From positions 1-14,252 of the forward strand of contig JBBSJT010000061.1 of NCBI GenBank assembly GCA_038257035.1: a stretch of 14,252 nt of DNA, read 5' to 3'. This document shows, piece after piece, positions 3,357 through 11,727 of the stretch. Position numbers and translations under genes: made by a program. The notes below the pieces were generated by a model, which was not told where the DNA came from, did not search any database, and worked only from the letters and a program-made list of their open reading frames with translations. This DNA is from Chlamydiia bacterium (GTDB lineage: Bacteria > Chlamydiota > Chlamydiia > Chlamydiales > Parachlamydiaceae). The stretch's first letter is position 1. Every line of letters starts with the position of its first letter.

Positions 3357-3461
3357 GGGGACGGTTTTCTTATAAGTGCATAACTTTATAATCGATTTAG
3401 CTAAAGGTATAAAACCAAATGGTCGATTAAAAAGTTATGCACTTGTAAGAGAACTGTCCCC
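3357..3461 (+). repeat. Long-hairpin dispersed repeat, copy 1 (REPIN/MITE-like, 105 bp)
   Basis: 39 bp arms GGGGACGGTTTTCTTATAAGTGCATAACTTTATAATCGA ... TCGATTAAAAAGTTATGCACTTGTAAGAGAACTGTCCCC with 3 G-T pairs and 1 A-A mismatch; homologous to 5767-5872 and 11628-11727. Confidence 0.95.
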
Positions 3462-3491
3462 GATCCCTTTTAATTAAAAATTTTCACTAGT

Positions 3492-4202
3492 TCATTTAAA
3501 CTGCTCAATCATCTTAAAAAAGTCATCTACACTTATTCCTGCAAATGACTTAATCATCATATCAGCACGGGATAGATCCTGTTGTACTGTATAATCACTT
3601 GGGATTGCTATCGTAAAGCAACCGGCAGTTATGCCTGCAATAACACCCGGCAGACTATCTTCAATGACAATCGTATTTTCAGGCAAAACCCCTACACCCT
3701 TCATCGCATGTAAATAGATATAGGGCTTTGGCTTATTTACACCCTCCACGTCAACATACTCTTCAAGATCATCTTCCCCTGACAAAACAATGTCTATCAA
3801 ATGTTCAATTTCAAGACTCCTCAAATGCTCTAAAATCTCTCCCTTTCTTGCCGCAGAACATACCCCTATTTTTACCCCTAACGACTCTTTTCTTAACCCA
3901 AGTTGTTTAAGAAAACCAACCGTCGATGCAATAGGAGGCAATCCTTCTTTACAAAGAACCTCATAAAACTCCCTTTTCATTTTTAAAATTTGGTCTGGAA
4001 CATCCCGACCTATTTTTTCTGCCAGCAACTTTGCATTCACATCAGCAGACTTGCCAACATAGTGGAAGTATTCATCCAACAAAAGATCAGCATCTAACTC
4101 TAAAAGCGCATGCTTCCAACTAAGATAATGAGAGTATTCGCTATCCACAAGCGTTCCATCACAATCAAAAAGAACCGCCTTAACATTAGCTTCCGTATCC
4201 AT
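3492..4202 (-). CDS. HAD-superfamily phosphatase (beta-PGM/YqaB/CbbY-like, subfamily IA)
   Basis: Motif I AVLFDCDGTLVDSE, motif II GVCSAA, motif III KPKPYIY, motif IV VIEDSLPGVIAG; GAGGGG SD favours ATG 4202 rather than 4226. Confidence 0.93.
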   Translation of the reverse strand: MDTEANVKAVLFDCDGTLVDSEYSHYLSWKHALLELDADLLLDEYFHYVGKSADVNAKLLAEKIGRDVPDQILKMKREFYEVLCKEGLPPIASTVGFLKQLGLRKESLGVKIGVCSAARKGEILEHLRSLEIEHLIDIVLSGEDDLEEYVDVEGVNKPKPYIYLHAMKGVGVLPENTIVIEDSLPGVIAGITAGCFTIAIPSDYTVQQDLSRADMMIKSFAGISVDDFFKMIEQFK

Positions 4203-4484
4203 TTTTAACCCCTCAAAAAATCCCATTTTAACACCAATAAATCAGAAAAGTCAACGCCCTCAATGTAAACCCGCTTTACAGGTAAACGCGCTTTTCTTAA
4301 ACCTTATTTATCAAGAAGTTCACTCTAAGAAAAAAAATTTATACCTCAGCAGAATAAGTTTCAATTACTAACTCCTGAAATTGAATAATATCCTCATTAT
4401 TCAGAATTGTGTTTGTGGGTTTTATAGGTTGTTAGGTATAATAATATATTATAAGGAATATTAAAAAACAGCAGAGAAAATGTT

Positions 4485-5691
4485 ATGAATACCAATAATA
4501 ATAATGAAATTCATATAAATGCCAACGGTTTTTTATTTGAAGTTAAAGATAGTAAAACAGACGAAGTAAAAGGTTATTTTTTTGGAGCGCCTCACGTTGC
4601 TGATAAAGAGATGCTGCTTTCCCTTCAAAATGAAAAAATAAAAGGAGTGTTTAACCAATCCAAAACTCTTTTTGTAGAAAATGTCGAAACCTACCTCACC
4701 GATTTTGATAAAGATGGACAAGAAAAAAACCACTTATAAAAACTTTTCTAATAAAGTTAAAGAGATGGATAACTCGAGTTATGATTTTTCCGCAACGACT
4801 CACTTTACCCCGGGTCCTTTGGACGGACCTTCAGGAATGACAAAACCGGGTGTTGATTTTCATTTTTTAGCTGAAGCTTTAGAAACAAATAAGGCTGCTG
4901 TTTCAATGGAAGAGGATGGAGACAGTAATCAATCAAAAGCCTTATTAGATGATCAGATCATTTCAATATATAAAAATAATTTTACGGGACTCATTTCTGA
5001 CCATCCTCAGCACATAAATAAGTTATTATCGATTGTTAATGCGACTTCTACCGATAAACCAACTAGCGAAGAGGAGTCAACGGTTAAACCTGCTTTAAGG
5101 GAAGAGGATAAACTAAACATATTAAAAGCATTGGTAGCCAAACGAAACGAATCTTGGAAACTCGGAAAAAAGCAAGACTTTATTGCTGTTATGAAAGAGC
5201 TTGAAGGGGGTTTTCTTGAAAATCTTACCCTTTTTGATAAATTCACTCTTGAAATTGCTGATGATAATAACGGTAAGAACTACGATTTAGCGCTTTGTAA
5301 TTTTATTATAAAAGAGAAAAAACTTAACAAAATAGAAGACCTTAAAAATCCTTTAGCAATTATTCATCACGCGGCAATAAAAGCCAATTCCATCCAAAAT
5401 GGAGAGTGGATACAAAACGCCCATGAAGACATAAAAGAAAATCTAATTGGCAAAGAAGATCTTCTCGACGAGATGAAAACTTTATTTGAAATATTTGATA
5501 GCTTAAAGTCTATAGCATTTCAAAGAAATCGAGAAATCAACTTAAGTAAAAAGGTAGATGAATTTTTAAATTCTTCTTCAACACCTCAGTTTTTTGTTTT
5601 TGGAACATCTCATTTAGCAAGCACCCATAATTTAAACCTCATCTCTATGTTAGAGGAAAAAGGTTGGAAAATCACCCTAATGAAAAGTTAG
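4485..5691 (+). pseudogene. TraB/GumN (Tiki-like metalloprotease fold) gene split by a single-base frameshift
   Basis: ORF 4485-4739 carries the family N-terminus (GFLFEV..KGYFFGAPH..FNQSKTLFVE). ORF 4681-5691 carries GVDFHFLAEALETNKAAVSMEE, RN and FFVFGTSHL..LISMLEEKGWKI. Deleting one A from the A7 run at 4723-4729 fuses them into 401 aa. Confidence 0.8.
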
Positions 5692-5766
5692 TCTCCTCTT
5701 TTTAATTATAAATATTTTTTTGTTTTTATCGCTATAAAAAATCAAATAATTTATAACAAGAAGTTT

Positions 5767-5872
5767 GGGGACGGTTTTCTTATAAGTGCTTAACTTTTTA
5801 ATCGAATTATTTAAAGGTATAAAAACTAAACGGTCGATTATAAAGTTATGCACTTGTAAGAGAACTGTCCCT
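5767..5872 (+). repeat. Long-hairpin dispersed repeat, copy 2 (106 bp)
   Basis: GGGGACGGTTTTCTTATAAGTGCTTAACTTTTTAATCGA ... TCGATTATAAAGTTATGCACTTGTAAGAGAACTGTCCCT; same orientation as copy 1. Confidence 0.95.
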
Positions 5873-10250: not shown

Positions 10251-10264
10251 TAAAGGAATATAAA

Positions 10265-10774
10265 ATGAGTTTTCAAATTTCAAACACCTGTTTTAAAGAA
10301 GTTACTCAGGCACCTGCTAAAAGTAACACAGAAAAATTGCATCTAGATCTTCAAAATCAGTTGAATGCTACAAATCAAGGGAGTGAACTTTTAAGTCAAG
10401 AATTCAATCTTTTAACTCAATGCATCGAGAAAACTCAACAAGTGCTTGCCGATACAAATAATAAATTCGTTTGTCTTAATCGATCCAGTGGGCAGACACA
10501 GCAATCTCTTGTCGTTACGCAACAGTGCCAAACCACTACAAGTGAAAAATTAATCATTGTAAATCGTAATTTAGAATTATTGGACAGAAAAATTGAAGAT
10601 CTTAAAGAAAATAATTCAGAAATGATAGCCATGTTACAAGCAAATGATCAGAATGCATCTCAATTACGTGTTTCCATTGCTGAAGATAGTAGAAGTCTTG
10701 CAACACTTGAGGCTCAAACTAGAAATATGATTCATGTCATGAATCAACTTATAATTTTACAACAACAAATATAA
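10265..10774 (+). CDS. Hypothetical coiled-coil protein (Q/N/T-rich)
   Basis: 169 aa ORF, AAAGGA SD, 14 bp after the previous stop, heptad pattern over most of its length. Confidence 0.85.
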   Translation: MSFQISNTCFKEVTQAPAKSNTEKLHLDLQNQLNATNQGSELLSQEFNLLTQCIEKTQQVLADTNNKFVCLNRSSGQTQQSLVVTQQCQTTTSEKLIIVNRNLELLDRKIEDLKENNSEMIAMLQANDQNASQLRVSIAEDSRSLATLEAQTRNMIHVMNQLIILQQQI

Positions 10775-10796
10775 AAATTTATACAAAAGGAAAAAA

Positions 10797-11546
10797 ATGA
10801 ATTTCAGTATTACAAATCCCAATAAATACTCAGTTGCAACGCATCGTAAGCATCACTTTATCATAAATTGTTCTTATGAGCTTACAGAGCAAGATGGTTC
10901 AAAATATAGCGTTGTTAGACAAATAGACAATGGACATGCAAAAAGGTGTCATGATGTGGCTGCACAGAGGTTAATCAATTTATACATTAACCCCTATGAA
11001 ATGATGGATCGAGGACTTGCACCTAAAACTGATAAATATAAACCAGTTATTGCAAAAACATTGTTAAATGGTCCTGTTAACGCAGTTACTGTTCAACCAA
11101 ACCCTCTTGAAAATACCCTTCAAGCAACAATGCAACAACTAGTAATTTCACAACAAGCTCAGGCTGCTCTTCAGCAGGAAGCTGCTATTGCCCAACAAAA
11201 TCTTGCTGCTGTCCAACAACAGGCAGCCTTAGCTCAACAGCAAGCGCTTATTGCCCAGCAAAATCTTATAGCTACTCAACAACAAGCAGATTTAGCACAG
11301 CAACAAGCTGCTGTTTTACAACAGGATCTGAACACTACCCAACAACATCTAGCACTAAGCAATGATGAAATAGCAAATCTTAGAGGCCAAAATTTATTTC
11401 TATATTCTTTAATACAAGAAAAAGATCAAGAACTTAGATTATTGCTTGTTGACCGTGAAGCAAACCATCAAAGAATTCATCTATTAGAAGGTCAAATTGG
11501 AGAGTTATGTGTTCTCATAAGACAATTTATTAATTCAGGAAGATAA
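10797..11546 (+). CDS. Hypothetical protein with glutamine-rich heptad-repeat coiled coil
   Basis: 249 aa ORF, AAAGGA SD, 22 bp after the previous stop; QQ dipeptide every 7 residues from aa 119 to 182. Confidence 0.85.
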   Translation: MNFSITNPNKYSVATHRKHHFIINCSYELTEQDGSKYSVVRQIDNGHAKRCHDVAAQRLINLYINPYEMMDRGLAPKTDKYKPVIAKTLLNGPVNAVTVQPNPLENTLQATMQQLVISQQAQAALQQEAAIAQQNLAAVQQQAALAQQQALIAQQNLIATQQQADLAQQQAAVLQQDLNTTQQHLALSNDEIANLRGQNLFLYSLIQEKDQELRLLLVDREANHQRIHLLEGQIGELCVLIRQFINSGR

Positions 11547-11627
11547 AAGTACCCTAAAGAGCTTAGACGATTTCTTAGGTATCAATAAAAAATTTATACT
11601 GTAAAATAATGAAATATTAATTAATTT

Positions 11628-11727
11628 GGGGACGGTTTTCTTATAAGTGTATTATAAACGACTATCATAGAGATATAAAACTAGATTGTTGATTAAAAAG
11701 TAATGCACTTGTAAGAGAACTGTCCCC
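11628..11727 (+). repeat. Long-hairpin dispersed repeat, copy 3 (100 bp, more diverged)
   Basis: GGGGACGGTTTTCTTATAAGTGTATTA...TAATGCACTTGTAAGAGAACTGTCCCC; 5 bp deletion in left arm relative to copies 1 and 2; outer arms identical. Confidence 0.93.

Follow-up and report, generated by a model that had tools for sequence, protein, structure and literature searches.

Long inverted repeats flanking RAYT-like genes were described by Di Nocera et al. (2013), who named the genes TIRYTs and the resulting units TIRtrons; according to that paper, the terminal inverted repeats (TIRs) share the motif GGGGWSAS, and some of them exist as families of moderate abundance whose copies stand singly, as dimers or in groups (PMC3733652). 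Quentin et al. (2018) assigned 20 out of the 26 TIRYTs to TnpA_REP subclass 2.1, each of these 20 with a Bac_DnaA_C, HTH_23 or HTH_28 domain, and report finding no repeats like repetitive extragenic palindromes (REPs) near subclass 2.1 genes (PMC6006769). In the accessible portions of the literature pairing RAYT with chlamydia, PMC6006769 among it, chlamydiae figure only in phylum lists. TIRYT/TIRtron elements are scarcely named in the literature searched, and their mechanism is not worked out. The present analysis concerns a family of long hairpins, three copies of which were noticed in a 14,252-nt contig (JBBSJT010000061.1, or C61; the window, meaning this whole stretch of DNA) of a metagenome-assembled genome (MAG) of Parachlamydiaceae, here G000, comprising 2.37 Mb in 210 contigs with 36% G+C and 95.8% completeness. 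The hairpins are likely to be gene-less dimers of TIRtron terminal inverted repeats, with a transposase mechanism proposed by analogy, and the family adds a new member, from chlamydiae, to the TIRYT/TIRtron kind, of which few descriptions exist; by itself it does not amount to a new kind of system.

The window contains three hairpin copies and a decayed fourth:

3357..3461, + strand, hairpin copy 1: a dimer of two inverted ~39-nt arms with a 27-nt loop, between convergent OMP and HAD genes
5767..5872, + strand, hairpin copy 2: nearest relative of copy 1, 75 bp 3' of a TraB-like open reading frame (ORF)
~7392-7460, + strand, decayed fourth copy: nhmmer E 1.7e-6, aligned with copy 1 and a copy on contig C44
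11628..11727, + strand, hairpin copy 3: the same arm cores, between a 249-aa ORF and an AAA-ATPase gene

Copy 1 scores 100.4 bits with nhmmer on the + strand and 75.4 bits on the - strand, and its arms (3357-3395 and 3423-3461) measure 39 nt with 90% complementarity in a repeat search. Copies 1 and 2 form the top pair in the genome at 90.6% identity, copy 3 has lost 5 nt from its inner left arm and its loop has diverged, and the decayed copy retains recognisable inner arms and loop, both GGGGAC/GTCCCC termini being lost. The mean column identity of the three-copy alignment is 85%, and the cores TTGGGGACGGTTTTCTTATAAGTG and ATGCACTTGTAAGAGAACTGTCCC, which the initial annotation had reported as shared 24-nt stretches, are invariant over 24 columns each. 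Its spacing of 38-81 bp after a + strand stop codon is likewise reproduced, the copies beginning 38, 75 and 81 bp past the ORF ends at 3318, 5691 and 11546, and direct repeats flank none of the three, in agreement with the reported lack of target-site duplication. The sequences flanking the window copies have no match elsewhere in G000, indicating separate insertions rather than segmental duplicates. Folded as single-stranded DNA (ssDNA), the + strands of copies 1, 2 and 3 reach -33.6, -27.6 and -21.7 kcal/mol (z -10.7, -8.2 and -7.8), energies that 0 of 200 shuffles match for any copy, while the - strands are less stable by 5-9 kcal/mol, since each of the three arm mismatches reads G.T on the + strand but A.C on the other.

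The dispersed repeat family postulated from the window is borne out at the genome level, with 27 places found by BLAST and 29 by nhmmer, together with about a dozen fragments, using a profile from 24 oriented copies and a threshold of at least 40 bits and at least 85 model positions. All 29 good copies are intergenic, occupying 20 tandem-gene, 5 convergent, 2 divergent and 2 contig-end contexts. The arms share a median pairwise identity of 81% and the loops 42%, and in copies outside the window the palindrome extends a few bases beyond GGGG...CCCC, as CGATT-GGGG...CCCC-AATCG. The copies are clustered, with 9 neighbouring pairs less than 10 kb apart versus 2.1 expected, a number that none of 5000 simulations attained; for several copies the closest relative lies on the same contig, and the flanks of many are members of other repeat families.

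The evidence linking these arms to an enzyme comes from 72 other genomes of Parachlamydiaceae. A Y1 transposase gene flanked by the same arms, which the initial annotation had suggested looking for, is present in G010, G078, G056 and G045, representing four genera. In G078, a 313-aa gene lies between perfect 30-nt inverted arms, GGGGCCGGTTCTGCATAACTGCATAACTTT; a 313-aa ORF in G010 has two arms upstream and three inverted ~30-nt arms downstream; G056 carries a TAG-broken gene with whole hairpin copies on both sides, and G045 a gene fragment with an adjoining arm. Homologues of the gene occur at 23 loci in 15 of the 72 genomes, and family arms lie beside all four of the closest ones (100, 84, 77 and 66% identity by tblastn) and beside none of the 19 others (at most 49% identity), for which the only matches, at E 0.66 and 0.068, are away from the gene. 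At least 4 arm matches are found in five genomes (G045 with 26, G056 with 19, G078 with 29, G057 with 8 and G010 with 4), four of which hold the close gene, the fifth, G057, being 63% complete; the 67 genomes with 0-1 arm matches contain no homologue of at least 65% identity. In g2 and g43, the two mixed genera that could be checked, one genome has arms and gene, and its genus-mates have neither. This co-occurrence across the family and within g2 and g43 indicates that gene and repeats travel together, patchily. The gene occupies a single place in G056 and G078, versus 19-29 arm matches. Neither same-genus genome, G001 (86% complete) or G002 (96%), contains a match to the family, and the first 40 relatives gave only short arm-like matches, in two genera. 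In a wider genome-contig collection from which the window's own genome was excluded, the strict arm pattern gave 0 matches; a relaxed pattern gave 7 loci in 5 Parachlamydiaceae/Chlamydiae MAGs.

The 313-aa ORF of G010 matches Pfam Y1_Tnp with E 4.5e-12 and 46.6 bits (cut-off 23), and the HUH histidines H60 and H62 and the tyrosine Y119, located in RYIHLNPV, are invariant in 10 of 10 aligned homologues. In its C-terminal part, a profile of the ten homologues matches DnaA domain IV structures (E 7.1e-8); the single G010 protein gives no match against the PDB with phmmer and scores 24.4 bits against Bac_DnaA_C, below the Pfam cut-off of 31.5. The best NCBIfam model is the REP-associated tyrosine transposase (REP_Tyr_transpos), at 61.9 bits and below its cut-off of 80. 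The GGGGWSAS terminus recognised in the initial annotation is fitted exactly by the right arm read inward, GGGGACAG, and in 7 of 8 positions by the left arm, GGGGACGG, with a poorer fit in the G078 arms, which read GGGGCCGG.

The likeness to TIRtrons thus encompasses, in the relatives, a Y1/HUH gene flanked by long inverted repeats rather than REP hairpins, the GGGGWSAS terminus (right arm exact, left arm 7/8), the C-terminal helix-turn-helix (HTH) of Bac_DnaA_C type in the enzyme, and TIRs that also occur at a distance from the gene, alone, as dimers or in groups. The differences are the host, Parachlamydiaceae, the main text of PMC3733652 being free of chlamydial genus names; the restriction of the G000 family to gene-less dimers with a 27-30-nt loop; and the conservation here of a left/right asymmetry. 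Compared with subclass 2.1, near whose genes no REP-like repeats are reported to have been found (PMC6006769), the arms here form multi-copy families. It is by arm homology alone that the window copies qualify as TIRtron-type, an assignment predicted from sequence.

Two further Y1 systems are informative for comparison. In REPIN-RAYT systems (Bertels & Rainey 2011, PMC3116915; REPs of E. coli and Pseudomonas), two inverted units likewise make a long hairpin, many repeats accompany a single-copy Y1 gene flanked by units, copies are intergenic without target duplication, and the repeat is specific to each clade of the gene. The present family differs in that its single arms are not palindromes, its termini are GGGGAC/GTCCCC without a GTAG or CGTC tag, its enzyme is about twice as long, HTH-bearing and below the REP_Tyr_transpos cut-off, its copy number is low (~30), and its cognate gene was not found in the G000 assembly. 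The IS200/IS605 elements (IS608, ISDra2), which serve as the model for the proposed mechanism, share HUH/Tyr chemistry, lack of target duplication and asymmetric imperfect hairpin ends. Their ends, however, are two different subterminal hairpins, unlike the inverted copies of one sequence seen here; no orientation bias relative to GC skew is found here, and these arms do not flank any of the seven loci of G000's own IS200-like genes.

In the TIRtron interpretation, an autonomous element would comprise a left arm, a Y1/HUH transposase with a C-terminal DnaA-domain-IV-like HTH (the TIRYT), and a right arm. On the model of IS200/IS605 and RAYT enzymes, the transposase would act on one element strand, single-stranded and folded, cutting at the GGGG terminus and rejoining without target duplication, with copies mostly moved over short distances. 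The left/right asymmetry, consisting of G.T at position 7, a one-base bulge, and forward-strand mismatches that are G.T instead of A.C, may serve to mark the active strand or to distinguish the two ends. Of the non-autonomous, ssDNA-mobilised family envisaged in the initial annotation, the non-autonomous dispersed hairpins and their Y1 link in relatives are retained, the ssDNA step being suggested by analogy only. The G000 assembly lacks the enzyme gene. As the population looks old, the copies are probably decaying orphans, although the gene may instead be unassembled. They would now matter mainly as hairpins, as landing sites of an IS1111-like insertion sequence (IS), and as occasional rearrangement points.

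An extension of the TIRtron interpretation involves the host replication initiator. The conserved inner core of the arms, TTATGCAC(T), agrees with the DnaA-box consensus TT[AT]TNCACA at 8 of 9 positions, and the cognate enzyme has a DnaA-domain-IV-like reader. TT[AT]TNCAC occurs 24 times in 24 copies versus 1.4 expected from genome frequency, the copies being non-independent and 8 of the 24 being without any occurrence. That the element family uses or competes for the replication-initiator DNA code is a speculative proposal, and one we consider doubtful. Under it, the enzyme would be recruited to double-stranded arms or forks via the DnaA-box-like site, one folded strand would then be processed, with the G.T-only asymmetry marking the strand, and orphan copies could survive as hairpin sites that bind DnaA or are strand-specific and that seed local accessory-gene rearrangements.

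The left/right asymmetry speaks for the TIRtron interpretation, within limits given alongside, and several other results weigh against it. A conserved left/right difference orients all copies, left GGGGACGG and right CTGTCCCC, with a one-base bulge in one subfamily. G.T stands at position 7 in 12 of 15 strict copies; the 13 consensus pairs across 24 copies comprise 257 Watson-Crick, 44 G.T, 1 A.C and 10 other pairs; arm-to-arm alignments give 68 G.T versus 16 A.C; and the forward strand is the better fold in 23 of 24 copies, all of these being non-independent counts, raised by common descent of the copies and by an orientation set from position 7. The same ACGG/CTGT asymmetry and bulge are present in G056, from another genus. 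The forward strand is the G-rich strand in 15 of 29 copies and, among those with |skew| of at least 0.03, in 7 of 12, so that no replication-strand bias of the IS200/IS605 kind is seen in a test that low skew and short contigs make weak. For single arms the folding energies are -1.2 to -5.2 kcal/mol (z from -2.5 to +0.5), and 6-135 of 200 shuffles fold equally well; because single arms, unlike classical REPs, do not fold by themselves, recognition of the hairpin is an assumption.

Orientation relative to genes bears on a different explanation, in which the hairpin acts as RNA: forming part of the upstream gene's transcript at its 3' end, its G.U-containing stem would stabilise or end the mRNA, with spread of the repeat secondary. 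Such roles have been proposed for REP/BIME and ERIC repeats. The position of the window copies 38-81 bp past stop codons would suit it, as would the three window arm mismatches, all G.T on the + strand and hence on the sense strand of the upstream genes. In tandem contexts the forward strand is sense in 14 of 20 copies and opposite in 6, a proportion that favours the RNA role in direction but is not significant (binomial p 0.115). Moreover, two copies lie between divergent genes, pairs sharing one spacer are oppositely oriented, and 0 of 5 terminator-like sites fall in a copy, the stem having no T-run after it. An Rfam scan of the window gave sub-threshold matches only, the best being a miRNA-precursor model at 42.7 versus a cut-off of 116.6 bits, and such sub-threshold matches are generic for long hairpins. 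In relatives, the same arms lie beside a transposase gene. A primary RNA role appears unlikely. Among neighbouring pairs, 5 of 9 are co-oriented and 4 of 9 opposed. The claim that the elements all point the same way therefore holds within the window, for all three copies plus the decayed one, and fails as a family rule: with gene, neighbour and GC-skew orientations mixed, the common orientation is local.

Further points against the TIRtron interpretation concern the history of the copies. No two copies are identical, the median pairwise identity being 70% and the maximum 90.6%, which argues against current activity and fits an old, decaying population. Some copy pairs were duplicated along with their flanks, as on C152 and in the C25/C134/C209 group. 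No pair of filled and empty sites was found, the same-genus genomes being only ~70% identical in DNA. Comparison of the whole-window DNA with G001, G002, G003, G008 and G010 yielded counterparts for the MFS and AAA genes only, G002 sharing just the MFS gene and G008 just the AAA gene, so that no orthologous empty site is readable and mobility rests on distribution instead of a filled/empty pair. The one sequencing run containing the window, a soil metagenome that may be the source sample, with contigs at 3-7x depth, showed no joints, and no RNA run with the window is listed; these data are uninformative on excision and expression. To our knowledge, transposition by any TIRYT has never been demonstrated at the bench.

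The cognate gene itself was not found in G000, where the G010 protein matches only contig C68 (25% identity, E 3e-5) and the 10-sequence profile only C68 and two dnaA paralogues. The initial annotation's statement that the window holds no cognate enzyme consequently extends to the entire assembly. This absence is not proof, because a ~1-kb gene between repeats could be lost in assembly; the smallest G000 contig looked at was 1.5 kb. Seven IS200-like Y1_Tnp loci of G000 were rejected as cognate enzymes, none being flanked by family arms, and a family copy on C119, 2.1 kb from a TGA-broken IS200-like gene, is taken as a coincidence. The C68 gene was also discarded, as its brackets are its own unrelated GC-rich repeats. 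It encodes a 176-aa RAYT-like Y1 protein (C68:12090-12620, - strand) with GC-rich inverted repeats GACAAACAGCCCGCC...GGGCTGAGC...GCGGAGCC, lying at ~1310-1380 and 2100-2160 of locus L053, and represents a second, unrelated transposase-repeat system in G000.

Bacterial miniature inverted-repeat transposable elements (MITEs) provide another comparison. Like Correia/NEMIS, ERIC, RUP and the Rickettsia RPE, the present copies are ~100 bp long, intergenic, built of inverted arms and possibly co-transcribed with neighbours. Those repeats come from DDE-type elements, or are attributed to them, and show target duplications (e.g. TA for Correia), neither of which holds here. The hairpins might nevertheless be MITEs of a DDE transposon, for example a Tn3-like one, with a transposase working in trans that mobilises them in double-stranded form. 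The arms of ~38 nt starting with GGGG recall Tn3-family ends, which measure 38 bp and likewise start with GGGG, and the dimer architecture is that of a MITE. However, G000 has no DDE_Tnp_Tn3 match, which control genomes do have, none of the 24 aligned copies shows a target-site duplication, and the only gene found between such arms is Y1/HUH, leaving a DDE origin highly improbable.

Other palindromes of G000 touch on the hairpin family. At C14:6234-6649, one family copy is split by ~350 bp of other palindromic repeats, followed by a mini-version from which inner arms and loop are deleted (GGGGACGGTT|ATGCACTT...GTCCCC). Palindromes of 63 nt (ACGATAAGCAGGATAATATCAA...TTGATATTATCCTGCTTATCGT) at C3:5811, C19:2215, C19:15996, C38:15137 and C42:15587 constitute another family, whose outer ends, ACGAT...ATCGT, are as around many hairpin-family copies. 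For the two families, either a target in common or an outer shell that both share is possible. In a search for an outer target of the form CGAT...ATCG, other palindrome families proved to have such ends too, and no target site could be derived.

The window copies were also proposed in the initial annotation to serve as recombination points shuffling cassettes. On such a reading they would be cassette-boundary sites analogous to attC, at which a site-specific recombinase shuffles accessory or effector cassettes between co-oriented hairpins. Three co-oriented window copies, or four with the relic, follow gene blocks without synteny in the searched relatives, and the hairpins are imperfect, strand-asymmetric and ~100 nt long, as in attC. 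The inner arm GCATAAC/GTTATGC matches RYYYAAC/GTTRRRY in 6 of 7 positions, copies cluster, and the hairpins are targeted by an IS of IS1111 type, elements that also target attC sites. A truncated gene beside copy 2 belongs here as well:

5890..6080, - strand, gene remnant: frameshifted, corresponding to residues 61-125 of a 382-aa G010 protein, with a 72% DNA match to G010:C94

This pseudogene breaks off 18 bp away from copy 2, measured from the right end of the copy; its tblastn pieces fall in three frames. The 382-aa protein is intact in G010 (L047 705-1853, - strand), and tblastn located the remaining two-thirds of the gene nowhere in the G000 assembly. The remnant is the single point that fits a rearrangement role.

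The cassette claim is nonetheless not supported by the genome-wide evidence. A Pfam scan covered 40 of the 41 genes flanking non-window copies, the omitted one being a 100-aa fragment at the start of C152, and found a family for 18 of the 40. The genes flanked include core ones (peptide deformylase, 3-dehydroquinate synthase, phosphoglucomutase, PolyA_pol, acyl-CoA dehydrogenase and ferredoxin) alongside eukaryote-like families (F-box, TPR, Sel1, Fic and ankyrin). With only 5 of 9 neighbouring pairs co-oriented, orientation is mixed; none of the 6 Phage_integrase (tyrosine-recombinase) matches of G000 is on C61, leaving no integrase nearby; and the sole placeable synteny break, after the MFS gene in comparison with G002, precedes copy 1. 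The attC cores RYYYAAC/GTTRRRY are not matched exactly, and the observation that the copies lack both attC cores and GTAG is upheld, the cores reaching 6/7 only and the termini being GGGGAC/GTCCCC. In relatives, the gene beside the arms encodes a Y1 transposase and no integrase. We regard a cassette system as very unlikely.

The IS directed at the hairpins is located as follows:

C109:5358-7038, continuing into C30, and C209:1428-1549, IS1111-like IS: C109:6906-7046 equals C30:1-141 over 141 identical bases

This 1681-bp element encodes a 375-aa DEDD (IS110-family) transposase, has subterminal inverted repeats, and sits exactly between GTGCATAAC and TTTTAATC of one hairpin copy, which extends from contig C109 into C30, at the border of arm and loop. 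The end of C209 shows the same left junction of the IS with different outer flanks, and the element is thus inserted at the same arm/loop border in two different copies. Its 3' non-coding part contains two 9-nt matches to the target, one per strand and 22 nt apart, one of which spans the insertion point; such a 9-nt pair arose in only 44 of 5000 shuffles. The 3' non-coding region may be a guide RNA. In IS1111-type elements the guide lies downstream of the gene. The arrangement is as expected for a seekRNA or bridge-RNA guide (PMC11187229, PMC11208160), and targeting of REPs by the IS110 family has been described (PMC1525189).

These elements form a natural series, from a gene between single arms (G078, G010), through a broken gene among hairpin dimers (G056), to the gene-less dimers of G000, and the conserved end asymmetry is a feature that can be tested at the bench. 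For the annotation of environmental chlamydiae, a class of long intergenic hairpins is explained as probable TIRtron derivatives, which are also preferred landing sites of an RNA-guided IS1111-type element whose guide is putative.

Additional features were observed around the copies. Upstream of the AAA-ATPase orthologue in G008 (L045, G008:C70) lies a different hairpin, at ~1165-1225 (CAGCGATTAGGAGT...ACTCCTAATCGCTG), with the outer motif GCGATT/AATCGC, as around G000 copies. In the window, a 258-aa ORF at 1508-2284 (+ strand) contains collagen-like GXY triplets arising from 93-nt and 9-nt tandem DNA repeats, scoring 25.0 bits against Pfam Collagen, just under the cut-off of 27.2, and is followed by a Legionella_OMP-family porin gene at 2335-3318. 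A three-gene block at 7596-11546 (+ strand) encodes proteins of 884, 169 and 249 aa with no Pfam family above cut-off, the 249-aa ORF consisting in part of 63-nt tandem repeats rich in glutamine codons.

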